A stretch of DNA of 64,000 nt from an uncultured delta proteobacterium (GTDB lineage Bacteria; Desulfobacterota; Binatia; UBA9968), in assembly GCA_963771465.1 (NCBI GenBank), contig CAVYTU010000019.1:1-64000 (forward strand), in the 5' to 3' direction. Position 1 is the stretch's first letter, and each line of letters opens with the position of its first letter. The position numbers and the translations under genes are program-made. The notes under the pieces were generated by a model. The model saw only the letters and a list, made by a program, of their open reading frames with translations, was not told the DNA's origin and did no database searches. Shown here one piece after another: positions 1,601-41,183 of this stretch.

Positions 1601-1752
1601 GGGTCGGGCCTGAGTATTGAGTTATGAGTGGGTCAGTTGTGGAGTTGAATTCAAAGTGCCTGTGCAGGATGAACGAAACAAAAAGCAGATCGTGCGGCAG
1701 CGGATCGAAACCCTGCTCGACAGAAAGAAGAATAGCCGACCGACAGTGACAG
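1601..1752 (+). repeat. Type-A non-autonomous element, internally deleted copy
   Basis: GGGTCGGGCCTGAGTATTGAGTTATG left end joined to the AGTTGTGGAGTTGAATTC...AATAGCCGACCGAC core shared with 5030-5268. Confidence 0.85.
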
Positions 1753-1849
1753 CACCACGGAAATCCCATTGCGCTCAATCAACGTTGCGCGCTTTCAATG
1801 TAACACTTGCCTCACCGTGATTAAGCTCCCACACTTGAGATAGCCGTTC

Positions 1850-2056
1850 GTGCCCGTTAATCTGATTCATCCGACATGGTCACGAAAGACCTTACAGGCT
1901 ACCAGCGATCCAACCGTCTTCATCAAGCCGATGTACGCCCAAGTTGTAAAAGATTTGTCGGAGGGCGAGTTTTGGAGCTATGAAGCAAAGCTTGACCGCT
2001 ACCGATGCCTCGCGGCGAAGCAGTCAGCGCGAACTATCCGGAGACCGGCGCGATGA
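1850..2056 (+). pseudogene. N-terminal fragment of an ATP-dependent DNA ligase (LigD/LigC-like)
   Basis: FIKPMYA...WSYEAKLDRYRCLA resembles ligase motif I (E-x-K-x-D-G-x-R); truncated. Confidence 0.65.
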
Positions 2057-2185
2057 GTGGGAGAAAAATCAACTTCGTGAAGCGCTGCGCGTGCCACGCG
2101 CGGGTTTCAGCAGATGTGCGCTGCGCTGCTTGTGAACAAGATGAGCGAGCTTGCCGTTCGCTACCGATAAGGGGGAATAATAAAA

Positions 2186-2476
2186 ATGTCTGAGCCGAAG
2201 GAAGTAAGAATACCATTCGCTGATTTGTTCAATATTGTGGTGGAATGCCCATGCGGTGCCGAGTTATCGATTGATTTTGCGAAAGAGGAAGCTCGTAAAG
2301 TGGACTGGGATCATAGTACGTCTTTTGCTTGTCCCGTTTGCCACAAGACCTTTAATGGCAATTTAAGATTAGGATTCTCTAAGTTTTTGGAATGGCAAGA
2401 CAGGGTAATAGAATCCAAGCTGCAGCATCGGGTTTCCTTTCTCATCAAAATCGAACCGAGAGATGATTCTTCATAG
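2186..2476 (+). CDS. Hypothetical small protein with CxC...CxxC (possible Zn ribbon)
   Basis: ATG preceded by a purine-rich stretch; ECPCG and CPVCH motifs; lower GC. Confidence 0.6.
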   Translation: MSEPKEVRIPFADLFNIVVECPCGAELSIDFAKEEARKVDWDHSTSFACPVCHKTFNGNLRLGFSKFLEWQDRVIESKLQHRVSFLIKIEPRDDSS

Positions 2477-2671
2477 AACCTACCGATTAACCGGCTGAGA
2501 ATATGCGAGAGCCCAGGTTTGAAGCAAATGAAAAAAGCCGTAGATGGAACAATGAAATTCTTGCGAATCGATCAGCGATAAACTTTATTACAGACCACTA
2601 ACCGATGGTCATAATACGGTCTCAATCGCTTTTTGAACTAGCGGATGATCAAGACTCGGCATCTTGCCGTC

Positions 2672-2861
2672 GGGAGGTTGGAACCATGACCTATATAGGA
2701 TTCGATCATCACAAGAAGTGGACGCAGGCCGCGGCAATTGATGATCAGGGTAAAGTCATTCGCGAGATGCGCGTACTTAACGACAGCCGTTTCTTGAAAG
2801 GATTCCTGAGCCGAATCGTCAAACGGGTTAGCGGAGGGCAAGAGTTATAAAGACCTGACCC
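2672..2861 (+). mobile_element. IS110-family transposase 5' fragment joined to a type-C terminus (copy 1)
   Basis: RBS plus MTYIGFDHHKKWTQAAAIDDQGKVIREMRVLND (IS110 N-terminus), then GCAAGAGTTATAAGACCTGACCCC; near-identical to 14812-14998. Confidence 0.8.
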
Positions 2862-2894
2862 TCATCACCGCTCATCGAACGGAACAAGCCACCG

Positions 2895-4133
2895 TTACAC
2901 CCCTTGCGGCGCCAACTCACCTTCGGGCGGTGTCCGCAATGTGTAACTCCAGAACGGCATGCCGCTCTTCATACCTTCGGCGGCTAACGCCGCTTCGTAG
3001 CTCTTGCGGATGTTGGGATCTTCGTCCACGTAAGATATGGCGCGGCCGCCGTCCCGCGTGTCGATGGCGCCACCGTCCATCGCATCTCCGCCGGGCGCGC
3101 CGCCGCGGCGAAATCCAGGACCATAGGGTCCGTCGAAAATCAGCAACCTGAGACCGTCGGGATGGGTGCCGAAGTGTTGATGAAACCAGTCGCCGGCCAT
3201 CGGCGCCGCGCTGATCATGCCCACCGGCTCATAAGTTTGTTTTTTCACTTGATCGCCCTGACCCGCCTCCCAAGGCTGCATTCCGAGGCGGTCGGGCCAG
3301 GTGTAGCTATAGCCTTTGCCTTTGATGCAAACCAGAATCGCGCCGGAAGCGTGCTTGTGCGCTTTGGAATACTGCCCGGTTTGGTATTGCCCGATCTTCA
3401 TGTAAAAGTTTGCGCCGGCCATGTGCGGCTCGATGCGCCTGAAGTCGAAGGCGCGCCGGTTGTCAGGGGGCAACTCGCAAGTGAGAATATCGGGGATGAC
3501 GTTGGTCTTGCGCATGGCAAGACCGCGCACGGGATCGGCGTAAATATCTTCGACGGGCCGGAAGTAATCGTCGGAAGCGTCGAAGCGCGCAAGAAAATTA
3601 TAATTGCAGTTCATGACAAAGTCGGCGTCGCGAACGAGATTGATGATGTTCGGCGCGGTGGTGGCGGCCAGCAGCAACGCCGGGGACGAGGTGGCGTTGA
3701 CCACTTGGTGCCAGGCGTTGAGCGGAATCGCGAACAACGATCCTCGGCTCCACTCGAATGTGAGTTTCCTTTTGCTGCCCTCCTGCCACACTTCGGTCGT
3801 GCCGCGACCATCAACGACGTAATAAATCTCTTCGTACAAATGCCGCTCGGCGTTCAGCGCTCCCGCGGCCGGCACTTCGACGACGTACATGCCCCAGCGA
3901 CTTTCGGTTCCGAGGAGTTGAATTGCCGTGCCCCGGCCGCCGAGCCGTTTCCACGGTTGCAGTGGGAGGTCTTGGATTTTATGCACGCCGATGTCCCGGT
4001 GGATTGGGACGCCCTGGGCTTCCATGAACAGATCATAGGGGGACTTGGGATTTGTCCATTTGCCGAAACCAGCCTTTTGTCCCTTTTCTGGCTCACGCCA
4101 TTCGAAGACCTGCGCACCCGGTTCAACGCCCAT
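2895..4133 (-). CDS. Bicupin protein (gentisate 1,2-dioxygenase-like cupin)
   Basis: AGGAGG RBS; two cupin motifs (ERHLYEE...PLNAWHQ; KAHKH...WFHQH). Confidence 0.8.
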   Translation of the reverse strand: MGVEPGAQVFEWREPEKGQKAGFGKWTNPKSPYDLFMEAQGVPIHRDIGVHKIQDLPLQPWKRLGGRGTAIQLLGTESRWGMYVVEVPAAGALNAERHLYEEIYYVVDGRGTTEVWQEGSKRKLTFEWSRGSLFAIPLNAWHQVVNATSSPALLLAATTAPNIINLVRDADFVMNCNYNFLARFDASDDYFRPVEDIYADPVRGLAMRKTNVIPDILTCELPPDNRRAFDFRRIEPHMAGANFYMKIGQYQTGQYSKAHKHASGAILVCIKGKGYSYTWPDRLGMQPWEAGQGDQVKKQTYEPVGMISAAPMAGDWFHQHFGTHPDGLRLLIFDGPYGPGFRRGGAPGGDAMDGGAIDTRDGGRAISYVDEDPNIRKSYEAALAAEGMKSGMPFWSYTLRTPPEGELAPQGV

Positions 4134-4320
4134 ATCGCTAACCTCCTTCTCGGCTGAAACACTTTACACTTTCTCACTTACACTTTTCCCGTGCTCGGTT
4201 CTACCCGTTCACTGACCTAAGCGTCCGATCCAGCCGTCTTTGACCAATTTCTCCAACGGGCCGTGCAGGCGAAACAGCTCGGGCTTGCCGAAGAACTCCT
4301 TCGAGACGGGCCGCCGTGCC

Positions 4321-4408
4321 GAACGAAACAAAAAGCAGATCGTGCGGCAGCGGATCGAGACCCTGCACGACAAAAAGAAAATAGCCGACCCACGATTACG
4401 CACAACTC
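4321..4408 (+). repeat. Type-A element, 3' half only
   Basis: GAACGAAACAAAAAGCAGATCGTGCGGCAGCGGATCGAG...CGCACAACTC matches 5169-5257. Confidence 0.85.
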
Positions 4409-4475
4409 GGGATTGCTTCGATCCTTTGGGGATAAAATGCTATACGTTGTGCGCAAGAGCTAGACGGAGCGAAAC

Positions 4476-4970
4476 ATGGACATTAAGGCGAGCTATAACT
4501 TCCGCAGAATGACCGAGAAACTGACCACCTCCGGGATTGTGCAGCCTGATGGGCTGAAGGCACTTCGGGCACAAGGTTATGAAGTCGTCATTAACCTGCT
4601 TCCGGACACAGGTAGGAACGCCATTCCCAATGAGCGAGACATCGTTGAATCGCAGGGGATCGAGTACATCTACATTCCCGTTGACTTCAAGCAGCCGACA
4701 GCCGCAGATTTGTCGACGTTCTCGGAAGCTCTCGACCGGGTTCATGAAAAAAAGGTCCATGTGCACTGCGCTGCAAATTACCGAGTCAGTGCGTTCTACT
4801 CCCTTTACCTGGTGAGTCGCGGCCTCTGGAGCGCTGAACAAGCTATGGAGTTCATGCGCAGCGTATGGCAGCCGAGGCAGCCGAGCGAGCAACCCGGCTG
4901 GTCAGACTTCATAACTGTGGTTCTCGCGGAAGTCAGCGCCCAACAAAGAGGTAAAGGTTCGCCGCGTTGA
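4476..4970 (+). CDS. DUF442 / beta-lactamase-hydrolase-like PTP-fold protein (putative sulfurtransferase or phosphatase)
   Basis: G..VVINL, YIYIPV and the HCAANYR C-x5-R loop. Confidence 0.8.
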   Translation: MDIKASYNFRRMTEKLTTSGIVQPDGLKALRAQGYEVVINLLPDTGRNAIPNERDIVESQGIEYIYIPVDFKQPTAADLSTFSEALDRVHEKKVHVHCAANYRVSAFYSLYLVSRGLWSAEQAMEFMRSVWQPRQPSEQPGWSDFITVVLAEVSAQQRGKGSPR

Positions 4971-5029
4971 ACTGTCTGGCTTTCGCCAAGCGTCCCAAAG
5001 ACCGGCAAAGGTGAACGAGCAAAGCCGAA

Positions 5030-5268
5030 GGGTCAGGCCTGAGTATTGAGTTATGATAGGCGGCGTTAAATCTTCTAATCTGACATTTCGGATTTTCGTC
5101 GATCTCGCGTGTTCAACGATCGCGAGCAAGAAGTTGTGGAGTTGAATTCCAAAGTGCCTGTGCAGGATGAACGAAACAAAAAGCAGATCGTGCGGCAGCG
5201 GATCGAGACTCTGCGCGACAGAAGGAAAAATAGCCGACCGACAATAACGCACAACTCAGGCCTGACCC
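5030..5268. mobile_element. Complete 239-bp MITE-like type-A element with perfect 15-bp terminal inverted repeats
   Basis: Begins GGGTCAGGCCTGAGT and ends ACTCAGGCCTGACCC; internal sequence recurs at several sites in the window. Confidence 0.9.
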
Positions 5269-5384
5269 GAATTTTCCCTCCCCATGAGATTTCTGCGTGC
5301 AGGCACAACAGCTGATCTTCGCCAGCTCGAAGACTCGCGACAACACGGTATTCACGAGTATTAAGATTTACGATCTGACCCCGT

Positions 5385-5617
5385 AGAGTCGGCCAAGAAA
5401 ACGTCATCGCCGGCACCAGCTACGGCCTAAGCGGCCGTGTCCATCCGCAAATCGCCTGGGCCAAACTGCGCGACGGAGCATCGATCGCGAGCAAGAAGTT
5501 GTGGAGTTGAATTCAAAAGTTCGTGTCTGGGCTGGCGAAACGAAAAGCAAAAATCTCAGAAGTAAAAATTTGACGTTTGATTTCCATCGATGATGTCAAG
5601 ATTCAAGACTTGACCCC
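5385..5617 (+). mobile_element. Type-B element right part carrying a captured methionine synthase II gene tail
   Basis: Translates VGQENVIAGTSYGLSGRVHPQIAWAKLRDGASIASKKLWS*; ends GTCAAGATTCAAGACTTGACCCC; second copy at 13795-14023. Confidence 0.8.
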
Positions 5618-5691
5618 GAGACGAATGACCCCGAGACTGAACTGACCCCGAGACCCGTGTGACCCGAGACCCCGAGACCCCGAGACCCCGA
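5611..5691. repeat. Stuttered tandem duplications of terminus plus flank, (T)GACCCCGAGAC
   Basis: TGACCCCGAGAC at 5611, 5626 and 5643, then shorter GACCCCGA units. Confidence 0.9.
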
Positions 5692-5893
5692 TGTCGTGAA
5701 AATTTTAGAAGAAAGTTCCGCTCGATGGCATCGACGGGGAGGTGCCAGACAAGGGCTACAGAAAATAACGGTTGGCGCCTGGAATCGCTCCTCTGTTTTA
5801 AAGCGTGCTTTGTGATACCAAAAAGCCTTCTCGAAGCGCTTATATCCAGGCCGTATTATGGATTGCATGAGTCTCGGAGTTTTGACGCAAATT

Positions 5894-7351
5894 CTAACCC
5901 ATTCTCCGCCTTCCAGTGTGGATGATTGCAGGAGGAGAAAAATCTCCAAACAGCAGGGCCTGATGGTTGCGAAACATGGCCGCTCTAGATAGGAGACGTT
6001 CTGTTACTTCTGCGGTACGCCGCGAAAGCGAGTTGAGGTCATCTTGGTTTTCCAATCTCAAGATGAAAAAGTTTTTACAGTTATCTAGCGTATTCGCATG
6101 TATTTTGGCAGGTCTTTGTGAAACTAAGATCAGATAAAGGCCATACTTCCGCCCCTCACCTGAAATGCGATTAACCCATTCAGTGGTGCGTTTTTGCCAT
6201 GGCTCCTCCGCTATTGCAGGAGCCACGTTATGAGCTTCATCTATAACAATAAAGGTATTTCTTTTTTTCTTCTCGTTCCTTTCCCAAAGTGTACGCAAGA
6301 CGGCCTCTGCAATAATTGCTCTGTGTGCAAATCGTAACCCTCCGAGGTTGAACTGGAGAAAACGGTCGACTAATTGGTTGTTTTCCAAATCGTACAATGA
6401 GTCCTGCGGTTGGTCCGACCATATCGGAGCCTTTTTTATCCTCGTGAAGAAGTCGACCAAAAGAGCTCGCCCTTTAAGATCTTCCTCCTGAAGCGGGTAA
6501 CCACCCGTCCCCGGAAAGACCATGAGTTCGTTCATTTTAAATCTCTTTCCTAAGTTTGTCCTCAATTTTTTCTGGGGTTAGAACTCCGGCTGAGGATAAC
6601 CGCTTACAGGTAAGTTCATACCATTCCTGCATCGAAAAATGATATGGAACATTTTCGATTTGAGTTAGCTCATCATAACTAAATCGATCCATCCGGACTC
6701 TAGGGTTCGTATCGAGTCTTATTAACCGCTGCAAATCGGCCTGCTCCGTATTCAGGACCTGAGGATCGATCATTTCACATGGATGATCAGGGGAGTTCAC
6801 CGTGTTCGCCGGAATTGGTTGATCAAACTTTGCGAAATCTGAATTCGGGTCTAAAACAACAATCTGCGAGTCGGGAATCTTCAAAAGGATTTCCTCAAGA
6901 AGCAGTCCCAATAGCGTTGTCTTCCCAGACCCCCGATGAACCGAAGACACAGGAATGGGTGTTTAGAAGCTTTCTGCCATCTAGCACAACTGGCACGTGA
7001 TTCCTTGTCCTCGTCAGCTCACCTATTTTTAGCGGGTGTGGCGAGTTCGCATCAAAAAATTCCGGTAATGATGTATCTTCATCGGCTGTAAGTAACCTGT
7101 TCCCGCACAAAATTTATAGAAGGACCTTTATTAAAAAATCTACATTCATACTCATACGTCGCCGCCCGATTCTCAGTCGTAACGGAATCACCGTACATCC
7201 CTTCCACTAATCCAAGGATTCGATGGGAAGCATCCTGATTAATTTCAACGTAGTCGCCAGGGGCAAGGGGATGGTCATTAACGCTGGTTGCAAAAACGCA
7301 CCTCTCCGAGGTCGTTTGCTTGATAACATTACCAAGCCATTTCGTTTCCAT
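5894..7351 (-). pseudogene. HerA/DUF87-type ATPase split by three frameshifts
   Basis: Overlapping ORFs join into an N-terminal barrel-like region, HSCVFGSSG/SGKT Walker A, VVLDPNSDF, IVIDEAHN Walker B and EGRKYGLYLILVSQRPA; low GC. Confidence 0.85.
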
Positions 7352-7610
7352 AGCAATTTTTACTTCCTCACGCTTTGTTTTTGAGCAGCCACTCGCGTGT
7401 TATCGGCTTCGGGGGGATCTCTCATTTCAGTTTTTAAGATATACACCCTCACTGACGGATTAGACATGATTGGTTTCACAGCCACCGAGCGTAATAGAAT
7501 AATTGATCGATCGTCAAGCATATGATTAGAAGAAATGCGGGGAAAGCTACAGGCTCAGGCATGAGTAATTGACTTATTCGATAGCGAGTCTTGTGCGCCT
7601 GTCCGCCGTC

Positions 7611-7700
7611 ATGGATCGGGGTCACACATGGATCGCACATGGATCGGGGTCATGGATCGGGGTCAGGTCTTTACTCTTGCTATGGTCATGGATCGGGGTC
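7611..7700. repeat. Type-C left terminus with stuttered duplications
   Basis: ATGGATCGGGGTCA occurs 4 times; GGGGTCAGGTCTTTACTCTTGCTAT occurs twice. Confidence 0.9.
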
Positions 7701-7803
7701 AGGTCTTTACTCTTGCTATTGATTGCCTGTTATCTTGTTCCCTTCGCGTCAACCGCTCTGAGTCGGACCTGTTCAACTTACAGCAGCCGCAGCAGCAGCC
7801 GCA

Positions 7804-8001
7804 GGGTCAGGCCTGAGTATTGAGTGATGAAAGGTCAATCGTCAACCGGGGCTAAATCTTCTGTTTTGACATTTCGGATTTTCGTCGATCTCACGTGTTC
7901 AACGATCGCGAGCAAGAAGTTGTGGAGTTGAATTCAAAAGTGCTTGTGAGGAATGAACGAAACAAAAAGCAAAAAAGTCTAGAAGTAAAAGTCTGAGCCC
8001 T
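7804..8001 (+). repeat. Type-A/B hybrid element copy
   Basis: GGGTCAGGCCTGAGTATTGAG left end, shared core, ends AGAAGTAAAAGTCTGAGCCC. Confidence 0.85.
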
Positions 8002-8033
8002 GCTCGTTTCCAAAAAAACCATCTAATCAAATT

Positions 8034-8202
8034 TGTCGCTAGTCCAATACCAAACAGCGATCATTGGATAGCAACGGTCAGCATAACCTGGTCTGAAACA
8101 AACCAAGAGCAGCTGCGAAAATTCGATGGACCGGTCGAGAGCTTCCCTACTCGTGGAGAGGCGGAATCATGGGGAGAACGATTTGCAAAAAAGTGAATTG
8201 AC
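8034..8202 (+). pseudogene. Remnant of a small hypothetical protein
   Basis: HWIATVSITW...FPTRGEAESWGERFAKK*ID; no start codon seen. Confidence 0.4.
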
Positions 8203-8327
8203 GTTTACGTTTACAGGGTTCCACCCGCTATTGGTTGAGTGGGTGAATAACACCAGTCACTCAAATGGTGTAGTGACAGCCTAGGTTAGTCGCGTCGCAG
8301 TCGAGGAGTTTTAGTGCTAACCCGGGA

Positions 8328-9350
8328 GTGCGAGAAGGAGTTGTCATGATGGCAAAGATCGTATGCTCGTTTTTCATTGCAATTGTTGTTGTAAATACCG
8401 CCGCCGCCCAACAGGGTTCGCTGGAAGAAAAGGCCAAGCAAGAGGGGCCGCTGGTGGTTTACGGTGATACCAACTTGCGCGACCTGCAAATTTTGGCGAA
8501 GGCTTTTCAAGCAAAGTACGGATTCATGAAAGACGTGAACATCCTCAGCCTGCCGATCGAGAGGCTGTTCGCGAAAATCACCACCGAGTTCCAGGCAGGG
8601 ACCTATAACCCCGACGTGATCTCGATGTCAGCGGGGCAGACGGTAAGTGCGAAGCAGTTGGGTTGGCTTGCGAAATACGTCTCACCAGAAGCGAAGTTCT
8701 ATGGAAAGGGCTTTAAAGATCCGGACGGTTTTTGGACCAGCAACTACATGAATACCAACGTGATCGCCCTCAATACCAGGCATGTGCGCGCTGAAATCTA
8801 TCCTAAGAGGTACCAGGACCTTTTACATGAACGTTGGAAAGGCAAGATGGGTATCAACAACGCTCACTATCGCTGGTTTGTTAACATGCTCGAGCTGATG
8901 GGGGAGAAAGAAGGTATTGCTTTTATGCGCGCGCTGGCCCGCCAGGAACTACATCCCGCGGGAAGCCAGAGCCTCCTGGTTCAGCTGCTGGCGGCGGGCG
9001 AGGTGTCGGCAGTGGTAAACGTTAATGGGCATGCGGTGGAACAGATCCGGGTAAAGGACGCGCCCGTTGATTGGGTAGCGGTAAACCCTGTGATTGTCGG
9101 CGTCCATCCTATAGCGGTTTCCGCAAGGGCGAAAAATCCGAATTCCGCTCGCCTCTTCGTCGATTTCGTGCTTTCTCAAGAGGGTCAAATCGTGATCAGA
9201 GAGCTGCAGAGAATTCCGAGCCGGACCGGCGTGCTCCCGAAGCTGGAGCGGCTCACCAAGGGACTCGAACTGCGTCCCAGCGATCCGGTGTTTGAGGTCA
9301 ACAATTTGCAGCGCGGCGAAAAGCAGTTTCGGGAAATTTTCAAGTTTTAA
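8328..9350 (+). CDS. ABC transporter extracellular solute-binding protein (Fe3+-like family); start may be ATG 8346 or 8349
   Basis: Signal peptide; AKQEGPLVVYG, PKRYQDLL..WKGK and NPNSARLFVDFVLS. Confidence 0.88.
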   Translation: MREGVVMMAKIVCSFFIAIVVVNTAAAQQGSLEEKAKQEGPLVVYGDTNLRDLQILAKAFQAKYGFMKDVNILSLPIERLFAKITTEFQAGTYNPDVISMSAGQTVSAKQLGWLAKYVSPEAKFYGKGFKDPDGFWTSNYMNTNVIALNTRHVRAEIYPKRYQDLLHERWKGKMGINNAHYRWFVNMLELMGEKEGIAFMRALARQELHPAGSQSLLVQLLAAGEVSAVVNVNGHAVEQIRVKDAPVDWVAVNPVIVGVHPIAVSARAKNPNSARLFVDFVLSQEGQIVIRELQRIPSRTGVLPKLERLTKGLELRPSDPVFEVNNLQRGEKQFREIFKF

Positions 9351-9447
9351 GCAAGCAAAGCAGTCTCGAAGAGCGAGAGTAAAAAATCTTGACAAAGATC
9401 AACCAAGGTCGCCGAGGACGCGTGCGGCCCATCTAGGAAGGGATGAC

Positions 9448-10257
9448 ATGTCGTCGCTGGAAGGCAAGGTAGCACTCATAACCGGGTCCGGTCGGAATCT
9501 GGGCAAGGCCACTGCCGTCGAACTGGCCAGGCTGGGCGCCGATGTCGTGGTGAACGCTCGGACAAACCAAAGCGAAATCGATGAAGTTGCCGAGCAGTGC
9601 CGAACCTATGGAGTGAGGGCGCTGCCGATTATTGCTGACGTAGCATCTGGCCCTGCCGTGGAGGCCATGGTCCAGCGAGCGACCAAGGAACTCGGTCACG
9701 TGGACATCGTGGTCAACATGGTGGGCATTCGGCCATTCAATCATTTCCTCGACATCACTGAGGACGAATGGAACCTTGTCCTCAACATCAATCTCACAAG
9801 CTGCTTCCGGACGAGCAAATGCGTGCTGCCCCAGATGATTGAGCGCGGCTGGGGGCGAATCATCACCACATCAGGCGTCGGCGCCTATGAACACAGCACA
9901 AGCAGAGCGCACGTACAGGCGGCGAAGATGGGGTTGGGTGGGCTGGTTCGGACCCTTGCCGAAGCGTTTTCCCGATACGGAATTACGGCGAATAACGTGG
10001 TACCCGGCATATTCCGGACGCAGCGGCCTGCCGTCTGGTATGATAACGTTCCCAATGTCTTGCCGAATGCGGGCAAGTTCAACGAGAACGTGGCAGAGAA
10101 GCAGCCCGGCGCCGGCGCAGACCGAAAGTCAGCAATGGGCCGCGTTGGTACACCTGAAGAGCTTGCCTCGGTGATCGGTTTCCTCGTCAGTCCCGAGGCC
10201 TCCTACGTGACAGGGCAAACCATCCATGTGAACGGCGGCGTCTACTACAACGTTTGA
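9448..10257 (+). CDS. SDR family oxidoreductase (FabG-like)
   Basis: ITGSGRNLG glycine motif; HVQAAK in place of YxxxK; YVTGQTIHVNGG. Confidence 0.9.
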   Translation: MSSLEGKVALITGSGRNLGKATAVELARLGADVVVNARTNQSEIDEVAEQCRTYGVRALPIIADVASGPAVEAMVQRATKELGHVDIVVNMVGIRPFNHFLDITEDEWNLVLNINLTSCFRTSKCVLPQMIERGWGRIITTSGVGAYEHSTSRAHVQAAKMGLGGLVRTLAEAFSRYGITANNVVPGIFRTQRPAVWYDNVPNVLPNAGKFNENVAEKQPGAGADRKSAMGRVGTPEELASVIGFLVSPEASYVTGQTIHVNGGVYYNV

Positions 10258-10377
10258 TTCGTTCCCGGTTCCGTGTTGCTCTTAAGGGAGTAATTCGTGA
10301 GTCGTGAGCGTGAGTCGTGAGGGTCAGGCCTGAGCAGGGAATTTTGAATTCACCGAACGTGGTCCCGATTCATTTCA

Positions 10378-11526
10378 TTACTTGCGTGGCGGAAGAGGAT
10401 CCATCCCAGAGATAATTTTAAAAACCTTGATCACCTCGTTGTCCCGCGGCAGTGCTGCAACAAGTTTCTGCTGCTCCTCCCCCACCAGCGGCGTCGGATT
10501 GACTCCGATGACTTTTTTATATTGTTCGTGAAATTGGCGATCTTTGAAAGTATCGCGAAAGGCTTGCCTGAGGATCTCGGCGAATTTTTGCGGTGTGCTC
10601 GGCGGCAGATACTTGAGCGTTCCGATGCCCCAAAAAGTCCGCAACATGGCCATGAGTCGGCTCTCGATGCCGGCGCGCACGAAAGAATCGATGTCAGGCA
10701 AATGGGCAAATTGAGCGGGACGACGTCCTTTGGGATTCTCAAAAATGGCATGGAAATCGACGAGATTTTGGAAGGACTCCGTCAGCGTCTGCGTATCCAA
10801 CGTTGTCGCTCGCGCGTCGATTTCGCCTCGCTCCAAAGCTATTTCCAACTCGGTTCCCGAGTAGCCCACGACAAAGCGCGGCTCTTTGACGTCCAAGAGC
10901 CAGGCGAACAGCCGTCCGCGAATGTACTGTACATGTCCCACCGATTGGGCGCCGACGCGGAGCCCCGAGGCGGCGCGCAATTTTTCCAAGCTGTTGATGC
11001 CGAGAGCTTTGCGGGTCGCAAACATATTGATGTTCTCGCTGAAAGGCGAGCCGAGATAAATAAACTTGTAAGGGTCGTATTCGACACCGGTTTCGCCGAG
11101 CACGGCGCTCGAGAGCACGCCCGGCGAGCAGGCGCCGATCGTCAGTCCATCCGCGGCTGCGCGATAGACGTGATTGGCCGCCTGTCGGCCTCCTCCTCCA
11201 GGAACATATTGGCTAACGATCGTCGGATTTCCGGGAATGTACTTTTGCAGAAACTGCATGATAGTTTTGGTTCTTAAGTCGGCGACGCCTCCCGCACTGT
11301 TTCCTTCGATGACGGTAATGGTTTTCCCCGCGTAATAAGGGGCCTGCGTGCTGCCGATGCTGGGGAAAAGCACCAGCCCGGAAAAAACCAATGCGAGCCA
11401 ACGGCTGAGAAGTTTCGTCTTAAAACCTCCGCAGACCGTGTCGTTCAAACGCGCAATAGTCTTCCGGTTCTGAAAAAAGTTCGGCTCAACCGGCTCAGCC
11501 GGAGCTATGCGCGATATTCGAGGCAT
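10378..11526 (-). CDS. Bug/TctC-like tripartite tricarboxylate transporter substrate-binding protein (true start probably downstream of 11526)
   Basis: YYAGKTIT...AGG..D, KYIPGNPTIV, PGGGG..AANHVY...DGLTIG, LERGEID. Confidence 0.85.
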   Translation of the reverse strand: MPRISRIAPAEPVEPNFFQNRKTIARLNDTVCGGFKTKLLSRWLALVFSGLVLFPSIGSTQAPYYAGKTITVIEGNSAGGVADLRTKTIMQFLQKYIPGNPTIVSQYVPGGGGRQAANHVYRAAADGLTIGACSPGVLSSAVLGETGVEYDPYKFIYLGSPFSENINMFATRKALGINSLEKLRAASGLRVGAQSVGHVQYIRGRLFAWLLDVKEPRFVVGYSGTELEIALERGEIDARATTLDTQTLTESFQNLVDFHAIFENPKGRRPAQFAHLPDIDSFVRAGIESRLMAMLRTFWGIGTLKYLPPSTPQKFAEILRQAFRDTFKDRQFHEQYKKVIGVNPTPLVGEEQQKLVAALPRDNEVIKVFKIISGMDPLPPRK

Positions 11527-11616
11527 CGCGGCACGCTATATCAAAGCCAATTCGTCAAGAAAAGGTTCGCGTCCGCTTTTTCCGGGCTTCGTCAAGTAAA
11601 AGGAGGAGAGTCGTCA

Positions 11617-11892
11617 GGGTCAGGCCTGAGTATTGAGTTATGATAGGTTAATCGTCAACCAGGGTTAAACCTTCTAATTTGACATTTCGGATTTTCGTCG
11701 ATCTCACCTGTTCAACCATCGCGAGCAAGAAGTTGTGGGGTTGAATTCCAAAGTGCTTGTGCGGGATGAACGAAACAAAAAGCAGAAAGGTTAGCAGTGA
11801 CAGTGCAACTCTTGATATCGTGCGGCAGCGGATCGAGGCCCTGCGCGACAGAAAGAAAAATAGCCGACCGACAATAACGCACAACTAAGGCA
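11617..11892 (+). repeat. Type-A element, near-complete copy with a small insertion
   Basis: Same left end and core as 5030-5268; ends CGCACAACTAAGGC. Confidence 0.88.
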
Positions 11893-11961
11893 ACTTTCCA
11901 TTGAGTCCAGCCGCAGACCAGCCGGATCCCCTTTTCCGACCGGATCGATCAGAACCGCCGA

Positions 11962-26447: not shown

Positions 26448-26448
26448 C

Positions 26449-30357: not shown

Positions 30358-30452
30358 TCGTCGACTTGGACTTGTAACGTCCGCGCGCCCTGCATTAGAC
30401 TCTCGCATCGGTTGGCTTTGTCCGTCACCTTCCCTGCTGGGTTTTCCGCACG

Positions 30453-31556
30453 ATGATAACCGTTCATGCCGACGTAGTTGGGAGCCTGCTCAGACCGCCG
30501 GAACTGATCGAGGCACGCGCCAGATTGGCAGCTGGCGAGATCGATGCTCCACGCTTCAGGGAAATTGAAGAACGTGCTGTCTGTGACGCGATCGCGATTC
30601 AAGAGTTGGCCGGACTCGAAGTGGTGACCGACGGCGAAATGCGCCGCCAGTCCTTCCAGAGCCAAATGACCGCGGCAGTCGATGGCTTCGGTGACTTCGG
30701 TATGGACGCTTTTCTTTGGGGCGAGTGGCACAATGCGCAAGGGACAGTCCGCAAAGCGCGGCCGCAAAACCTCGGAGCAACTGGAAAACTCGTCCGCAAG
30801 CGCTATCTATCCGCTGATGAGTTTACCTATCTGAAGAACAAAACCAGCCGCGTCGCTAAAATTACGCTGCCGAGCCCGGGCCTTTGGGCGAACTTCTGGT
30901 CGCGCGAACACTCCAGCACGGCGTACCCGACTCTGGATGGTTTCCTCGCAGACATCGTTCAGCTCTTGCGCGAAGAGGTGCAAGAGCTGGTGCGCTTGGG
31001 AGCGCGTTATATTCAAATCGATGCGCCGCACTACGGGCTGATGCTCGACGCCAAGACACGGCGCTTCTACGAAGAGCAGGGGTGGAGTCTGGACCAATGG
31101 TTGACGCGTGGCATCGAGCTCGACAATGCGATCATCGCGGGATTTCCAGATGTCACTTTCGCGCTCCATCTCTGACGCGGCAATCAGGGCGGCCGGTGGC
31201 TCGCCGAGGGAGGGTACGAGTCGATCAGTCGCGGGCTCTTCCAGCGGCTCAAGGTACAGCGACTATTACTGGAATACGACGATGATCGCGCGGGCACGTT
31301 CGCGGCGCTCAAGGACATACCCGAAGACAAGTTCATCGTGCTCGGCTTGATCACCACTAAAACCGGCCGGCTTGAGCGCATGGATGACCTACGCCGGCGG
31401 ATCACGACGGCAAGCAAGTATTTTCCCCTGGCGCAGCTCGGCCTCAGCACGCAGTGTGGTTTTGCTTCGTCTGTTCTCGGTAACCCGATCTCGCCTGAAG
31501 AACAGATGCAAAAGCTCGCACTCGTGGTCAAGACTACGCGTGAGATTTGGGGATAA
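30453..31556 (+). CDS. Cobalamin-independent methionine synthase II family protein, predicted selenoprotein (367 aa, Sec241)
   Basis: VGSLLRP, VTDGEMRR, IQIDAP, HL-UGA-RGN, LLEYD and QCGFAS all in one frame; TGA at 31173-31175. Confidence 0.88.
31188..31205 (+). promoter_or_regulatory. Candidate bacterial SECIS hairpin
   Basis: GGCGGCC-GGT-GGCTCGCC begins 12 nt after the in-frame UGA. Confidence 0.65.
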
Positions 31557-31568
31557 AGATAGTAATAG

Positions 31569-31596
31569 GCGTAGACTTGCTTAAGTCTACTAACTC
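31569..31596. repeat. Type-D hairpin terminus
   Basis: GTAGACTT-GCTT-AAGTCTAC-TAACT; related to 36798-36825 and 41157-41183. Confidence 0.7.
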
Positions 31597-32344: not shown

Positions 32345-32429
32345 AGGCGCTGATATGGAGACGCCGAACGGCCCCGATCAGTGACCCGCATGAGAGACTT
32401 CATGAGCGAAAGATACCTCAAGGGATAGC

Positions 32430-32523
32430 GGGTTTCTTGACGAGGCTTTCGGTAACGAATGGGAAATTGTCCGCGAGCCAGGCGTCGAGCCCGCCTTCGA
32501 GCGGGCGGACTCTGGTGATTCCT
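32430..32523 (-). pseudogene. Duplicated 3' end of the rhodanese domain of 34165-35514
   Basis: Near-identical to 34177-34270. Confidence 0.85.
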
Positions 32524-32995: not shown

Positions 32996-33097
32996 CGAGG
33001 TGCCTCTGAATCGTGTGTAGATGTTTCGCTTTGACCAGCGCCACCTCGAACATCGACTCGTCGGTCTGACGCCGGAGTAGCTGGCCGGGCGCGCTGT

Positions 33098-33886
33098 TCA
33101 GTCGACCACCGATCGATCGGGAACGAGCGACCGCTGGACCCACTGGAACATCCGCCATCCGACGGGGTCAGGGGCGAGTGTCGACGCTGCAACCGAAGCG
33201 GCCTCGTCAGAGATCGGTCGCCCGTTGGGCGCTTTCACGTGGACCTCAGCCACCCGTTCGGCCATCACAAACCATCCGACCGATTCCTCCACCGACCGGC
33301 CGACCGTGAGCAGGCCGTGATTGCGCAGGATGCAGAACTTCCTGTCGCCGAGTGCCGCGGCGATGCGCTTGCCGCCATCGATCGAAAGCACCTCCACCTC
33401 CTCATCGTCGAAGAGGGCCTGGTCGAACACGAAGGCACACGCCTCCTGACTGAGCGCCCGAAACGGCTCGACGTTGGCCGACCATGGCGTGCCGAAGGCG
33501 GTGTGGGTGTGAGATGCGCTCACGATATCGGGACGGGCAGCGAGCAGCGGATGGTGGATGTAGTAGCCGGCCGTGTTGACGGCGCCGGTGGCGTTGCCGT
33601 CGGCATCCTTCACTTCGCCGCCGGGCCCGACCAGCACCAACTGGTGGACCGTCGCCTCGGCGAATGGGATACCCCAGTCGAGCAGCCAGAAGTGGTCGGT
33701 CCACTCGGGGTCACGGGCCGATACGTGGCCGTCGCCGAGCATCCCCCACCGCATCGCGCCGAAGATGCGGTATCCAAGCGCACACATCCGTTTGCGATGC
33801 GCCCGTTCGTCGGCAACCGAACGGACGGTGCCGTAGGGCTCGACCCCGTTGAACGGTGGATAGGGACTCGTTGTCATGTCATCCAT
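33098..33886 (-). CDS. Class II aldolase/adducin family protein
   Basis: GHVSARDP, YYIHHPL..ARPD..SASHTH, ILRNHGLLTVG. Confidence 0.9.
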   Translation of the reverse strand: MDDMTTSPYPPFNGVEPYGTVRSVADERAHRKRMCALGYRIFGAMRWGMLGDGHVSARDPEWTDHFWLLDWGIPFAEATVHQLVLVGPGGEVKDADGNATGAVNTAGYYIHHPLLAARPDIVSASHTHTAFGTPWSANVEPFRALSQEACAFVFDQALFDDEEVEVLSIDGGKRIAAALGDRKFCILRNHGLLTVGRSVEESVGWFVMAERVAEVHVKAPNGRPISDEAASVAASTLAPDPVGWRMFQWVQRSLVPDRSVVD

Positions 33887-34080
33887 GGTACCTCGCGCAA
33901 TTCAGTTGGGTGTTTCTGCATGGGATATTTCAAACACACCGCGAATTCCAGTCAACTCTCCGACGATTGACACGCTCGCCAGTTCAGCGATATTGCTGCG
34001 AGCAGAAAAAAGGTTGTTTCAATTTCCTGTACCGGAGAGGCGCTGTGTTAAGCAAAGAAGACAACGAATTCGAGTGCACG

Positions 34081-34130
34081 GAGCATGGGTCAGGAGCAAG
34101 GGTCAGGTGTATTTTGACATTGCGGATTGT
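34081..34130 (+). repeat. Type-B-like left terminus with stutter
   Basis: GAGCATGGGTCAG-GAGCAAGGGTCAG-GTGTATTTTGACATTGCGGATT. Confidence 0.7.
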
Positions 34131-34164
34131 TGGCGGCACCAGCGGCTCCGAAAAATACCTTCTC

Positions 34165-35514
34165 TCAAAGGACAACGGGTTTCTTGACGAGGCTTTCGGT
34201 AACGAATGGGAAATTGTCCGCGAGCCAAGCGTCGATCCCGCCTTCGAGCGGGCGGACCCTGGTGATTCCTTTAGCTCGTAGCAGCAGCGCCACACGGGCG
34301 CTGGTCGCTTCGTTGGGTCACGAACAGTAGAGAACGACGTCGCGATCCCGGGGAATCTCTCCGTGGCGCTCTTCGATCTCTTCCATAGCTATACGAAGGG
34401 CACCCGGGATCATCTGAGGAAACGCCTCGATATCCATGGGCTGGCGCAAGTCCACGATTGAAAGGTTTTCTCCTGCGGTGAGTTTGTCCATGAGTTCTTT
34501 CGGCGTGATGCGCGCAATCCGCAGCCGGCGAAGAAAGCGTCGCCGCTGGATGAACTTCCACAAAACATAAGCTGCCAAACTTCCGGCCAGGACTGCGACG
34601 AGCCAACCGCCCCAGCGCAGTGCGATCCGCTCGAGTTGATCGCCGAGCATCAAGCCCAAGCTCGTGACGGTGACGACCCAGAGGAATCCGCCCAGGGAAT
34701 CGAAGATCAGGAAACGTCGCACGGGCATGCGAAAGACTCCCGCTAGAGACGGTGCTGCGGTATTCAGACCGGGTATAAATTTGGCAACGAGCAAAGAACG
34801 GACGCCATGCCGGACGAAAAGGTTCTCAGTCCGCCGCACGCAGGAGTCCGGTTCGAGAGAAATGCGGCACAGCAGCTTCAGTATGCGCCCGCCACGGTAA
34901 CGGCCTAGAGAGTACCAGAACAGGTCAGCCAAAATAACCGCGATGAACGCCAAGGTTACCGCGAACGTCAAATTCATTTTACCGGCGCGGGCCAGCGCGC
35001 CGGCCGCGATCAACAGAGGAGCAGCCGGGATAGGCAGACCAAGCTGTTCGAGCAGCACCCACCCGAACAGCACGGTGTAGCCGTGTCTGATCAGGAAGTC
35101 GGCAGCTTGTTCCAGGCTCAAATCCCGGAAAGCCTGCGGCACTAGGCTCGCGAAAAAGAAACTAAGGACAGTCAATATCAGCGCCGCAACCGCCGATTCG
35201 ACATAGATCCAACGAGCCTGGGAGCGGAGTCGTTTGTCGACGCTTTCATCGCCGACGGACTCTTCGGTGCCGTTCATCTTGCGCGCGCCGCGCGCGGCCA
35301 AAGCGACTCAGGTCTTTTTGCGAGCCTGGGAAACAGCGAGAGTTCCTATCCAGAACGGCAGAAATAGCGTCGCATACCACCCGCGGCTTACATCTGCACG
35401 CGCGAAGACGACCGCCAGGACGACGCCCAGCGCGAGCATGGCGACACCCATGAGCTGGCGCTTACGGATCTCCTTCGGCCCGATATTGGCGAGCTCTGCT
35501 TTTCCGACGTTCAT
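34165..35514 (-). CDS. Predicted two-Sec protein: small membrane domain, DedA (VTT) domain and rhodanese domain (449 aa; Sec69, Sec399)
   Basis: ORFs 35308-35514 and 34318-35301 and the downstream frame are contiguous: QARKKT-U-VALAARG and LYCS-U-PNEATSARVA...RPLEGGIDAW; DedA motifs EQLGLPIPA and LVAKFIPG. Confidence 0.82.
34285..34303 (-). promoter_or_regulatory. Candidate SECIS for the UGA at 34318-34320
   Basis: CAGCGCC-CGTGT-GGCGCTG, 14 nt after the UGA. Confidence 0.6.
35281..35295 (-). promoter_or_regulatory. Candidate SECIS for the UGA at 35308-35310
   Basis: GCGCGC-GGC-GCGCGC, 12 nt after the UGA. Confidence 0.55.
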
Positions 35515-36797: not shown

Positions 36798-37220
36798 GCG
36801 TCAGACTTGCCTAAGTCTACTAACTTAATTTCTCTGCAGCGCGTGGCTTACGTTTGATGGATGACATTAAAGAAATTTGGCAAGCGGGGAAACGAGATAA
36901 CCCTGCTGCAATGCGGCTTCGCGGATGAATGGATCGCGGGCATTTACTACGTGCCCCAGCGCCGGCCCTTACGCAGCAATATCTCGGCCGAAAGTCCCGA
37001 CTGGCTGGCTACGCTCTTGAGCAAACCCTTTAGCGAAACGCGCCGCGAGACGGTGGCGCAATTGTTTCTTTGGCAATTTTCTTAATGAATCGCTCCGGTC
37101 CGGAAATAGTCTGTTCATGAGAATCAGGCGGCAAAAAAAGACTCCGCGCTCGAATGGATGTTTGCCGACTTCGGCACGAGTCCGTTCGCCCAGAACCGTT
37201 CGGAAGTCGTGCTCATCGCT
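36798..37220 (-). pseudogene. Probable Y1/RAYT-like transposase 3' remnant (copy 2) with its terminal hairpin
   Basis: Frameshifted EQTISGPERFIKKIAK...SRRVSLKGLLKSVA...; followed by TAGACTTAGGCAAGTCTGACGC. Confidence 0.6.
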
Positions 37221-38384: not shown

Positions 38385-38723
38385 ATCTTGCCACAAAAGC
38401 TCGCGCTTCGAATTTATGCTTTTCCCGCCGCCTTCAATCCTTTCAATACTGAGCGGCAGTTTGTTGGCCGGTTTTTGCATTGGGTTTTCCAAGCCAGGAA
38501 GCGAGAAGGCGTCGCAAGATTTTTTTGGTACATACTTCAGATTCCCTCTCTATCTGGCATACTTTAATAACAGTCGAAAAAATTTTCAGCACGACTGTCC
38601 TAAAAGCGCTCGCTCATTCGTCGCGCTATTGAGTATTAAGTGAGCCAATCGGTGCCTGGCGGGCGAATGCAGCAGCAATGTCTCCAAAACTATTTTGGCG
38701 AAAAGCTTAAGGAGGTTTGAACC

Positions 38724-39458
38724 ATGGCACAGGAGAAAATCAATGCGACGCGTCGACAAACCAATTTGCCGAACGAATCTGACCCATATCAGTTCAAGCG
38801 AGAAGAACTTCGACTGGCGGAAATTGAGCTCATGCGCCAGCGAGAGCGAGTAGCAGAACTTCGCCGCGAGCTGCCGCAAGGCGCGGCGCTTCAGGATTAT
38901 GCATTCGAAGAGGGTCCGGCGAATCTCGATGCCGGCGACACGCCGATTCGCACCGTCCGCCTGAGCGAACTGTTCAGCGCGCCTAATCGTTCGTTGGTCG
39001 TCTATCAGTTTATGTTCGGAAAGAAGAACACCACGCCGTGCCCAATGTGCACGCTCTGGATCGATGGTTGGAATGGTGTCGCCCACCATCTGGCTCAGAA
39101 CGTCGACGTTGCGATCGTGGCCGCGGCCGATCCGATGGCGTTGCGCGCACATGCACGCGCGCGCGGGTGGCACAGGCTTAGGCTGCTGAGTTGCGGCGCC
39201 AACACGTTCAAATACGATCTCGGCAGCGAAGACCGCGAGGGAAATCAGGATTCGACCATTTCCGTTTTCACTCGAGATACTGACGGAACCCTGCGCCACT
39301 TCTACTCAATTCATCCGTCTTTCTCGAGCGACATCAAAGAGCGCGGTATCGATCTGTACTGTCCCGTTTGGCATATCTTGGATCTCACTCCACAGGGGCG
39401 CGGTGATTGGATCGCGGACCTTGGTTACGGCACGAACGTGAGTGCGGCGCGTCGTTGA
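38724..39458 (+). CDS. DUF899 thioredoxin-like protein
   Basis: AGGAGG RBS; ERVAELRRELP, LVVYQFMFG, CPMCT, LDLTPQGR. Confidence 0.9.
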   Translation: MAQEKINATRRQTNLPNESDPYQFKREELRLAEIELMRQRERVAELRRELPQGAALQDYAFEEGPANLDAGDTPIRTVRLSELFSAPNRSLVVYQFMFGKKNTTPCPMCTLWIDGWNGVAHHLAQNVDVAIVAAADPMALRAHARARGWHRLRLLSCGANTFKYDLGSEDREGNQDSTISVFTRDTDGTLRHFYSIHPSFSSDIKERGIDLYCPVWHILDLTPQGRGDWIADLGYGTNVSAARR

Positions 39459-40085
39459 ATGTCGTCGTAGCGACCCACGCAGACTGAGCATTGGAGCTTG
39501 AGCACGAAGTCGCCAACATCAAATTTACGGTATCCATATCTTTAGGCCGAACTTTTCCTGCCGGAATGCGGGTATGTGTCAGATCTTCTCCTTTGAGAAG
39601 GATATTGACCAATGGATGGCCGAAATCATTTCGGGGTGGACTGAAGTGGAATTTATTCCCAAGCCGATTGATGCACCGGCGTTTCTAGCGGCAGTTGATA
39701 AGCTCGCACGTAAATCAAAGTAATTATTCCCAAACGATTTTCCGCCAGATGATCGCCGCTGATCAAATAACGATGGACAATCTTGACCTGATTATTTATG
39801 CCGACCGATCGTATAAGGCAGAATTGTCATCGCGTGGTTCGAGCACATCTTCCATAATGCGAACGTAATTCCTTAACACTTCCCGGAAGCATCCATCAAA
39901 GAATGGCGGCACGATGCATGCTCTGCTCTCGTTGGTCGGGGCAGAGAAGACACATCTTCGTGTCACTTCTTGACTAAAGACTTCTTGCCCCGGCACTACT
40001 TGCACCTACGTTTGGAACCCATTCATGAAATCCGACTGCATTGTGCTGCGGACTGCGCTCGTTTGAAGGAACTGACAGGCCGTTC

Positions 40086-40253
40086 ATGAAAAAAATGACC
40101 GCCAACCTCGAACGCCTAGTCTGTCCGAAATGCGATAGTAGCGACGTGCGGCTATCTCATTTGATGAATGAAATGGAGAAAGACGTAAGCCCTATATTTA
40201 TTAGCCCGTACCGCTGTCAGGATTGTGGGTATCGCTTCTGGGAAATGAATTAA
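40086..40253 (+). CDS. Small Zn-ribbon protein (55 aa)
   Basis: CPKC...PYRCQDCGYRF; stop lies 2 nt before the next ATG. Confidence 0.65.
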   Translation: MKKMTANLERLVCPKCDSSDVRLSHLMNEMEKDVSPIFISPYRCQDCGYRFWEMN

Positions 40254-40255
40254 CC

Positions 40256-41122
40256 ATGAACATACCCGAGACCACCCAAGTGCAGCGAAAAGCTAATCTA
40301 CCCCACGACCAATTTTTAGCCGAGCATCTGGCGCAGTCGCGTCCAGTGATTTTGACGGACGCCATCTCCCACTGGAAGGCATTAACGCAATGGACGCCAA
40401 AGTTTTTTTTAGAGCGATATGGTTCTGCCACGGTGATTATCGACGGCAAGTCCTACGCAATGGCAGATTTCATCCAATCAGTTTTGCATTCAGAACAAGA
40501 TCACCCCGCTCCATACCTGCGTAATTATCTTATCGAAAGATATTTCCCTGAGTTGTTGCCGGATATCATGCCGCTGCCTCAATACATGCGGCCTAATTGG
40601 TTCGAAAGCCGCCTTTTCCCGTCAAAACAATCATGTACCTTCCTTGAGTTATATATCGGCGGACGTGGCGCGACCTTTCCGTCTTTACACTTTGATGGAT
40701 GGCATACCCATGCGTTTTTGATGCAACTCCACGGCGTGAAGCAGTACCTATTTTTACCGCCTGAACAAACACCTTTAGTATACCCAGGCAGAGCCGGGGC
40801 CCATAACGTTTCCGTGCTCGAAGATGTCGAACACCCGGACTTAATGCGGTTTCCGCTTTTCGCTCAAGCAACCCCCATTCGCTGTGAGCTTCATCCTGGA
40901 GAAACCCTCTTTGTCCCCGCCGGATGGTGGCACACCGCTCGCATTTTGAGTCCGTCCATTACCGTTTCCGCCAACACTGCCAATAGTACGAATTGGCAAC
41001 AATTGGTACCGGACTACTGTGCATACATGGGAAGCCAAAAATCACGGCTGTATAACCACGCGCTGCGATTGCAGTTGGAGATGCTCGGGCTGCTTGCTCC
41101 CCTTTTGGATTGGATCTATTAG
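40256..41122 (+). CDS. JmjC / cupin-like 8 Fe(II)-2OG hydroxylase
   Basis: RPVILTD...W.A...WT, LHFD, G.K, LHPGETLFVPAGWWH. Confidence 0.9.
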   Translation: MNIPETTQVQRKANLPHDQFLAEHLAQSRPVILTDAISHWKALTQWTPKFFLERYGSATVIIDGKSYAMADFIQSVLHSEQDHPAPYLRNYLIERYFPELLPDIMPLPQYMRPNWFESRLFPSKQSCTFLELYIGGRGATFPSLHFDGWHTHAFLMQLHGVKQYLFLPPEQTPLVYPGRAGAHNVSVLEDVEHPDLMRFPLFAQATPIRCELHPGETLFVPAGWWHTARILSPSITVSANTANSTNWQQLVPDYCAYMGSQKSRLYNHALRLQLEMLGLLAPLLDWIY

Positions 41123-41156
41123 CCTGCCCTGGTGATCCGTTATTACCGAGGGGAGC

Positions 41157-41183
41157 GGTGTCAGTTTAATAAGTCTAATAACT
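41157..41183. repeat. Type-D-like terminus
   Basis: GGTGTCAGTTTAATAAGTCTAATAACT. Confidence 0.55.

Follow-up and report, generated by a model that had tools for sequence, protein, structure and literature searches.

Probable TIRtron terminal repeats in a flexible genome region of an uncultured Binatia bacterium

Among described mobile elements, the closest counterparts of the repeats studied here are TIRtrons, small elements of about 0.9-1.05 kb that resemble insertion sequences and in which long terminal inverted repeats (TIRs) with the tip motif GGGGWSAS accompany a gene for TIRYT, a transposase resembling the REP-associated tyrosine transposases (RAYTs; REP, repetitive extragenic palindrome). 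Both terms are defined in the relevant passages of PMC3733652 (Di Nocera, De Gregorio & Rocco 2013), which describe gene-less TIR repeats occurring singly, as dimers or in clusters, and a passage of PMC6006769 (Quentin et al. 2018) equates TnpA-Y1 subclass 2.1 with TIRYT. A full-text literature search for four forms of these names gives only these papers, whose relevant passages report no experiment, and the family is little studied. It is also widespread: scanning one genome per species, we found at least 566 TIRYT relatives in many phyla. We analysed the first 64 kb of contig C19 (CAVYTU010000019.1; hereafter, the window), a contig of 248 kb with uniform G+C in the 6.9-Mb, 19-contig assembly G000 of an uncultured Binatia bacterium. 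Termini of a GGGTCA/TGACCC family recur in it, and a preliminary description had assigned them to the Y1-HUH (RAYT-related) family and proposed that they gather and shuffle single genes into an integron-like array. We find that the termini are probably the TIRs of TIRtrons, present as gene-less and mostly decayed derivatives that have piled up in a flexible region. The Y1 link of the ends is supported; integron-like gathering of genes is not. On this reading, the window offers a clear natural example of gene-less TIRtron derivatives, in which ends of two clades stand next to each other and one clade is orphaned.

The genome shares with TIRtrons and TIR repeats, as characterised in passages of PMC3733652 and PMC6006769, a Y1/HUH RAYT-like transposase, long inverted repeats, GGGGWSAS tips and gene-less copies, moderate in number and found alone, in dimers or clustered. 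The C-terminal helix-turn-helix (HTH) or DnaA_C-like tail of the described family is represented here by sub-threshold matches only. Unlike the TIR repeats of those passages, copies in the window are mosaic (built from modules A-E), nested, mostly decayed and confined to two flexible regions, and two end clades coexist in the window, one without its transposase. The same passages make no mention of the tandem flank-plus-heptamer units reported below. REPINs and their RAYTs are alike in that doublets of inverted repeats, themselves non-autonomous, are held to depend for their movement on a related Y1 transposase acting in trans (Bertels & Rainey 2011, PMC3116915), but here the copies lack a GTAG-tagged palindrome, their ends are not self-folding and they number tens, not hundreds. 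The IS200/IS605 insertion sequences (IS) belong to the same Y1/HUH superfamily, and the co-orientation of copies in the window would fit action on one strand (passages of PMC6006769); they have subterminal hairpins and no TIRs, whereas TIRtrons have inverted repeats of about 25 bp (63 elements) and no hairpins.

TIRtron-type ends and a candidate transposase

The Y1_Tnp family has two matches in the genome, on contigs C3 and C17; in the C3 copy, other insertions interrupt both ends. The C17 gene is an intact open reading frame (ORF) of 282 aa in which the HUH stretch and the tyrosine motif are readable. It scores 84.5 bits against the NCBIfam REP-associated tyrosine transposase model NF047646 (cut-off 80) and 46.3 bits against Pfam Y1_Tnp (PF01797), with only sub-threshold HTH matches at its C-terminus (residues 247-281). 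The gene is flanked by TIRs and not by REP hairpins, neither end folding alone; the left end lies at 922884 and the right end finishes at 923829, giving a TIRtron of 946 bp, the sole intact one in the genome. As to the fit with the GGGGWSAS tip, relatives have GGGGTCAG, and the C17 copy has three G, not four. An intact Y1_Tnp gene with matching ends thus exists in the assembly (C17:922884-923829), bearing out the Y1-HUH origin proposed for the ends. Equally correct was the statement that no intact mobiliser lies in the window, where neither a Y1 gene nor a remnant of one was found (for last codons retained beside two right ends, see below).

Homologues of the C17 TIRYT occur in 35 of 41 related genomes, and the nearest among the relatives listed are 73-75% identical to it. 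In relatives the gene is present in multiple copies (28 matches in the genome with the most), and TIRYT thus behaves like an IS and not, as in REPIN/RAYT systems, like a domesticated gene. At 20 homologue loci, matching ends lie about 50-70 nt before the start codon and just past the stop; one of the 20 comes from the unpublished genome G005, which also contributes rows to several tallies and is the sole support of no claim. End statistics were taken from the best 80 loci, which span Binatia, Nitrospirota, Thermodesulfobacteriota, anammox Planctomycetota, Betaproteobacteria and others. There, 72 of 77 loci have a left core no more than 120 nt upstream, and 63 of 73 have a right core no more than 140 nt downstream. 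Both strict ends were present, 900-1291 bp apart, in 63 of 100 loci, and the arms of these 63 elements, about 25 bp long, vary between lineages and match within each element.

Two observations concern TIRYT copies outside the window. Directly before the intact C17 TIRtron, in the same orientation, lies a degenerate TIRYT N-terminal fragment (C17:922770-922883), and in the congener G019 an intact TIRtron likewise stands behind such a fragment (G019:C10:26477-26866), which suggests that in both genomes one TIRtron inserted into another. In three genomes of family f3, a single-copy TIRYT homologue of 334-336 aa has a left end only and a constant downstream neighbour, and is possibly a fixed, vertically inherited copy.

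The ends in the window resemble those of two such transposase clades. Type C ends (7660, 7696, 14998) match the 20-nt C17 right-end pattern with 0 mismatches, the right ends of types B and E (5597-5616, 14004-14023) match the C17 left end with at most 2, and the stretches before 2867 and 15004 retain the last codons of a TIRYT gene. Type A ends have their counterpart in the congener G015, where genes of 310-314 aa have them about 50 nt upstream and immediately downstream. The products of these genes are Y1_Tnp proteins 41% identical to the C17 protein, and type A clade proteins score 24.5 and 26.9 bits against Bac_DnaA_C, below the cut-off of 31.5. A tblastn search with 20 TIRYT proteins found no gene of the type A clade in G000. 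From the end matches and this negative result, the window appears to hold derivatives of two TIRtron clades that are not autonomous; for one clade the genome has a possible trans-acting helper, for the other it has none. Because types B/E and C match the left and right C17 ends, the C17 enzyme could act on them in trans. Type A copies, whose clade has autonomous members in congeners and no transposase in this assembly, are probably stranded.

A repeat finder placed type A left ends at 1601, 5030, 7804, 10321, 11617 and 30275, a type-B-like module at 5062, 7848, 11661, 13368, 30319 and 34108, and further shared modules, labelled C, D and E; by direct reading, right ends finish at 2867, 5268, 5617, 13704, 14023 and 15004. 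Fourteen of the 17 termini originally listed belong to the GGGTCA/TGACCC family, while those at 31569, 36800 and 41157 are copies of another hairpin repeat. The dense partition of the region by termini holds for 1.6-15 kb but not beyond, where family ends occur only at 30275 and 34100. The motif GGGGTCA is present in 15 copies in the window against 5.25 expected, a number that 0 of 100 shuffles reach, and all 15 lie within 5376-37446.

This concentration is not a genome-wide property. A strict end pattern of 11 nt has 42 matches in the genome against about 49 predicted from base composition, with 13 of them in C19:2851-30275, 7 in C14:932-962 kb and 2 flanking the Y1 gene on C17. Counted with a looser pattern, ends reach 4.04 per 10 kb in window positions 1-47 kb and fall to 0.59 in 47-64 kb and 0.27 along the remainder of C19, with 0.38 for the whole genome. 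In BLAST searches of the genome with the 239-bp element described below and with the whole window, modules were confined to C19:1.6-34 kb, C14:912-968 kb and C13:441-462 kb. By end densities and strict-pattern positions, the termini are therefore strongly clustered and not evenly spread, in line with the preliminary description. They are also co-oriented: on C19, every type A left end (6 of 6), type B motif (5 of 5), C module (6 of 6) and D module (4 of 4) lies on the plus strand, and on C14, 6 of 7 matches are on the reverse strand. Copies are mutually 79-96% identical, and most lack one end. Nesting recurs, with a type-B-like module 32 nt inside type A, as first described and found in 5 copies, and a type C right end inside a type B element.

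Individual elements, flank units and a possible mechanism

Two elements in the window are complete, and neither carries a gene (all features below are on the plus strand unless stated); the other copies, about a dozen, are ends that are truncated, nested or solitary and share a common set of modules. A type A miniature of 239 bp without an ORF occupies 5030-5268; direct reading confirmed its perfect 15-bp TIRs, and when folded as single-stranded DNA it pairs along these repeats (z -4.28). The other, a type B element of 656 bp (13368-14023), has inverted arms that agree in 21 of 24 positions and an internal type C right end at 13676-13704, and lies in a stretch (13330-14049) that includes flank-plus-heptamer tandem units outside both of its ends.

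The remaining type A copies are partial or degenerate. At 1601-1758, a truncated miniature keeps a left repeat with 1 mismatch and modules C and D, without a right end; its parts 1601-1627 and 1635-1758 are 96% and 92% identical to the 239-bp element. At 4302-4411, repeat finder, genome comparison and reading show a piece of module D together with a type A right end that is degenerate, and a degenerate type A-like left end at 7552-7580 resembles a variant frequent in congeners. The truncated element at 7802-7996 consists of a left end, a type-B-like module and module C and is 89.5% identical to 11615-11804. That region is part of a type A element (11615-11891) in which all four modules are present and the right end is degenerate; this element is 79% identical to the 239-bp element over 275 nt. 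Between these two, at 10290-10347, the tip of a type A left end stands alone, with tandem flank units before it. Farther along, a truncated element at 30273-30357 retains a left end and a type-B-like module, 95% identical to 11602-11699.

Type B is represented, beyond the 656-bp element, by the right part of an element with modules C and E at 5388-5619, whose right end resembles the left end of the C17 TIRtron and which is 79% identical to 13794-14026 and 81% to C14:953093-952915. Outside this right end follow short tandem units (5611-5690), each beginning with TGACCC(C) plus a few flank bases. A type B-like left end with one flank-plus-heptamer unit (34080-34144) stands 60 bp past the stop of a VTT/rhodanese gene (34318-35301, minus strand).

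Besides the one inside the 656-bp element, type C right ends occur in three places. A TIRtron right-end remnant at 2672-2867, whose type C right repeat ends at 2867, aligns to the 3' end of the C17 element and contains the last TIRYT codons fused to a 48-codon foreign ORF start. It duplicates 14812-15004 (96% over 196 nt), part of a second remnant (14812-15034) in which the right repeat ends at 15004 and is followed by two 18-nt units starting with TGACCC. An IS110 origin of the ORF start (2686, 14826), considered as a candidate, was not confirmed by NCBIfam or by a genome-wide PF01548 search, which gave one sub-threshold match, on C10. The third place, 7618-7720 on the minus strand, holds two tandem, inverted type C (right-type) ends that match the type C pattern with 0 mismatches at 7660 and 7696 and are preceded by flank-plus-heptamer tandem units.

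Composite transposons and mobile insertion cassettes are stretches of DNA bracketed by two inverted end elements. The 7.3 kb between the outward right-type ends at 7660 and 15004 are bracketed in a similar way: the ends are complementary in 22 of 24 positions, both carry the flank-unit hallmark, and between them lie five genes (SBP+SDR, gene 10378-11526, SBP and a small lipoprotein gene). Unlike in a composite transposon, the flanking elements are reduced to about 100 bp and there is no sign of movement. The stretch is a possible composite unit.

The flank units themselves may bear on how these elements move. Many ends have, before them if left or after them if right, one or more tandemly repeated units that combine a few bases of flank with the terminal 6-7 nt; in the window these are seen at 5611-5690, 7618-7700, 10290-10321, 13330-13367, 14018-14049, 14999-15034 and 34080-34106. 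The feature extends to other phyla: among the 80 loci, an extra heptamer core lies within 40 nt outside left ends in 21 of 95 cases versus 6 of 95 inside, and outside right ends in 18 of 73 versus 6 of 73 inside. Almost without exception in the cases inspected, the duplicated unit has its inner edge at the junction of the heptamer with the remaining repeat, from which we infer that DNA may be broken and rejoined 6-7 nt inside each repeat. The units would thereby give a hint, read from sequence, as to where TIRYT cuts.

Other mechanistic signatures were sought. Folding of 6 ends as single-stranded DNA gave no structure in the 4 type C or C17 ends and weak stems of 5-6 bp in the 2 of type B, ruling out that each end is a REP-like hairpin. 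Target-site duplication or a palindromic target was likewise rejected, no direct repeat being found in the flanks of the 63 elements; inverted likeness of these flanks is weak (mean 4.56 of 14 versus 4.08 in re-paired controls, sd 0.17). On the most probable reading, the elements have piled up, often side by side or nested and in one orientation, in a repeat-rich, fast-changing accessory region. The ends would then be colonists of intergenic seams, and the single-gene mosaic around them would be a property of the region, of which the ends are no demonstrated cause.

The gene mosaic and its possible causes

We compared the window with 30 congeners, tallying block boundaries by hand among the matches listed. 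Synteny with many congeners, at 70-85% identity, begins at about 47.6 kb and continues from there through the window. Positions 1-47 kb match congeners only as single genes or one 7-kb operon, on other contigs or in other order and often at higher identity, for example 21574-28478 (94% to G019), 33037-33937 (96% to G018 and G045), 15029-16000 (96% to G003) and 10351-11549 (91% to G003). Neighbourhoods differ accordingly: the homologues of 10351-11549 and of the cupin gene adjoin in G003, and those of 38467-39467 and 30390-31556 adjoin in G019. Cargo order is thus not conserved in relatives, as the preliminary description had anticipated, and a second hot region of the genome (C14:930-950 kb) shows a like mosaic pattern. 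Flexible genes reach 94-97% identity to congeners, compared with 70-85% in the syntenic core (47600-56000); being more congener-like than the core, they point to recent gene-level exchange among related soil bacteria. No tRNA genes were found as island borders, and no Rfam families in the window. Pieces of the VTT/rhodanese region are duplicated at 85-94% identity (32406-32523 with 34153-34270, and 19324-19433 with 34404-34513), likewise in congeners.

Whether the TIRtron ends take part in this exchange is a separate matter. In TIRYT-driven capture, paired or single ends would mobilise the genes between or beside them, building and reshuffling the array. Such capture would fit congener homology that begins exactly at ends (15029, 34101), the 7.3 kb with five genes bracketed by outward right-type ends at 7660/7696 and 14998, both with the flank-unit hallmark, and the right end/foreign ORF start junction present twice (2672-2867 and 14812-15004). 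It would also fit the congener G018, where a unit of an end plus 81 bp of the 3' end of an aldolase gene is duplicated. However, of 28 block boundaries just 7 have an end within 35 bp, leaving 21 without an end nearby. At ten congener loci of the aldolase block (L121-L122, L124-L131), an adjacent end is present only in G018, with a right-type end about 94 bp away in G015. The equivalent flexible region of G003, 80 kb long, is a like single-gene mosaic with 10 loose-pattern matches, and the 40 kb of it that were examined contain just 4 short inverted-repeat elements. Extra left ends aside, neither the rest of the genome nor 142 loci showed a gene enclosed by a left end and a right end that match, nor was any gene-carrying unit bracketed by matched ends in two contexts, and among the matches listed, the congeners contain no empty site for the 7.3-kb stretch or the 239-bp element. 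We regard capture as unlikely, and give the same low credence to the view that TIRtron ends are active seams of gene exchange, with TIRYT nicking the GGGGTCA strand 6-7 nt inside the repeat at either end. Were that view true, end pairs (including two of right type, as at 7660/15004) or single ends would carry neighbouring genes, and soil Binatia-like bacteria would trade single genes via C19:1-47 kb and C14:930-968 kb without an integrase. With gene-less complete elements, few boundaries at ends and a G003 mosaic that has few ends, the proposal that the ends gather and shuffle single genes was not upheld.

The mosaic could also owe something to the modules as plain sequence. Co-oriented modules might serve as portable homology, through which host recombination deletes, circularises and reinserts genes without a transposase. 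Modules of 50-190 nt with 79-96% identity do occupy most intergenic gaps of 1.6-15 kb in direct orientation, and four soil metagenomes join module C copies otherwise than the window does (for example, 5504 to 7974 in 4 of 4 runs). We nevertheless rate this explanation below capture, as identity and length are low for efficient recombination, the mosaic continues over 15-47 kb, where modules are nearly absent, and the metagenome joints may be other repeat copies in other organisms. Chimeric joins at repeats that mimic a mosaic are improbable to a still greater degree: the assembly has 19 contigs and an estimated contamination of 6.29%, and the related genomes are likewise like metagenome-assembled genomes, in many contigs, but C19 is 248 kb long with uniform G+C, repeats 79-96% identical are too diverged to mislead an assembler, and matching single-gene blocks recur on long contigs of several genomes. 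Hardly any probability attaches to a true integron or an integrase-less attC array. Integron arrays share with the window short single-gene blocks in an array, imperfect inverted repeats between them and an order that varies among relatives; unlike integrons, the window has no integron integrase, its genes lie on both strands with their own spacers, most boundaries have no repeat, and the repeats read as transposon ends with a cognate transposase. The integrase model TIGR02249 had its best stretch on C17, at 90 bits against a cut-off of 265, and Phage_integrase (PF00589) had no match on C19 or in C14:900-980 kb. No new gene-capture system is shown, then, and the flexible single-gene mosaic is real and unexplained by the ends.

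The preferred reading, that the ends are TIRtron remains which would have colonised intergenic seams, has observations to contend with as well. It does not predict boundaries at ends, yet homology blocks have them at 10351, 11584, 15029, 30350, 31556, 34101 and 2896; among these, homology to G003 starts at 15029 and homology to congeners at 30350. Also against it is the VTT gene, which has the same left end 60 bp past its stop in four contexts (the window, G019, G018 and G015), although G041, G006 and G017 have no left end beside the VTT/rhodanese gene. Ends that do not fold alone mean that an IS200/IS605-style single-strand mechanism cannot simply be carried over, and it is from end similarity that trans-mobilisation by the C17 enzyme would be deduced. 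No movement was observed, and copies 79-96% alike imply that none is clearly recent. Finally, in the soil metagenomes, contigs of four runs over 1-20000 are short, and their joints mostly connect repeat-module copies.

Cargo genes, metagenome coverage and other repeats

Most cargo genes had been named correctly (cupin, DUF442-type phosphatase, HerA, SBP+SDR and SBP); the exception is the supposed TctC gene, as 10378-11526 matches no Pfam or NCBIfam family. The HerA-like ATPase gene (5894-7351, minus strand) is split into three ORFs, with a HAS-barrel, a DUF87 and a Zot-like P-loop part. This gene is almost uncovered in four soil metagenomes that cover its neighbours.

For public runs, we used assembled contigs, from 24 soil-type metagenome runs in all and from 4 for the comparison over 1-20000. 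The 24 runs contain parts of 4401-14400, with at most 0.42 of the sampled words. In one soil-metagenome contig, 12 other letters replace 10264-10334, and further departures from the window sequence, each in a single metagenome contig, are at 14034 (29 nt) and 15010-15048. These differences in flank-unit stretches show variability and are not proof of excision.

Several repeats unrelated to the TIRtron ends were also seen. The 'type D' hairpin repeat forms a separate small family, at 31569-31595 (plus strand), at 36800-36826 and, as a weak match, near 41150-41180. Allowing up to 4 mismatches, the genome contains 5 copies, which do not include 41157. A repeat of about 80-100 bp at 54210-54335 is matched more than 40 times, on most contigs and in either orientation; at some places two inverted copies overlap. 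It is a dispersed family resembling REPs or miniature inverted-repeat transposable elements (MITEs), evenly spread, unlike the TIRtron ends. Another, of about 200 bp (52960-53170), has 17 matches on 9 contigs at 78-91% identity. Further small repeats in intergenic gaps of the flexible region, at 28676-28728, 16049-16256 and 39615-39745, have 9, 2 and 3 other copies in the genome, respectively, and the one at 16049-16256 is also present in G003, G014, G018 and G019.

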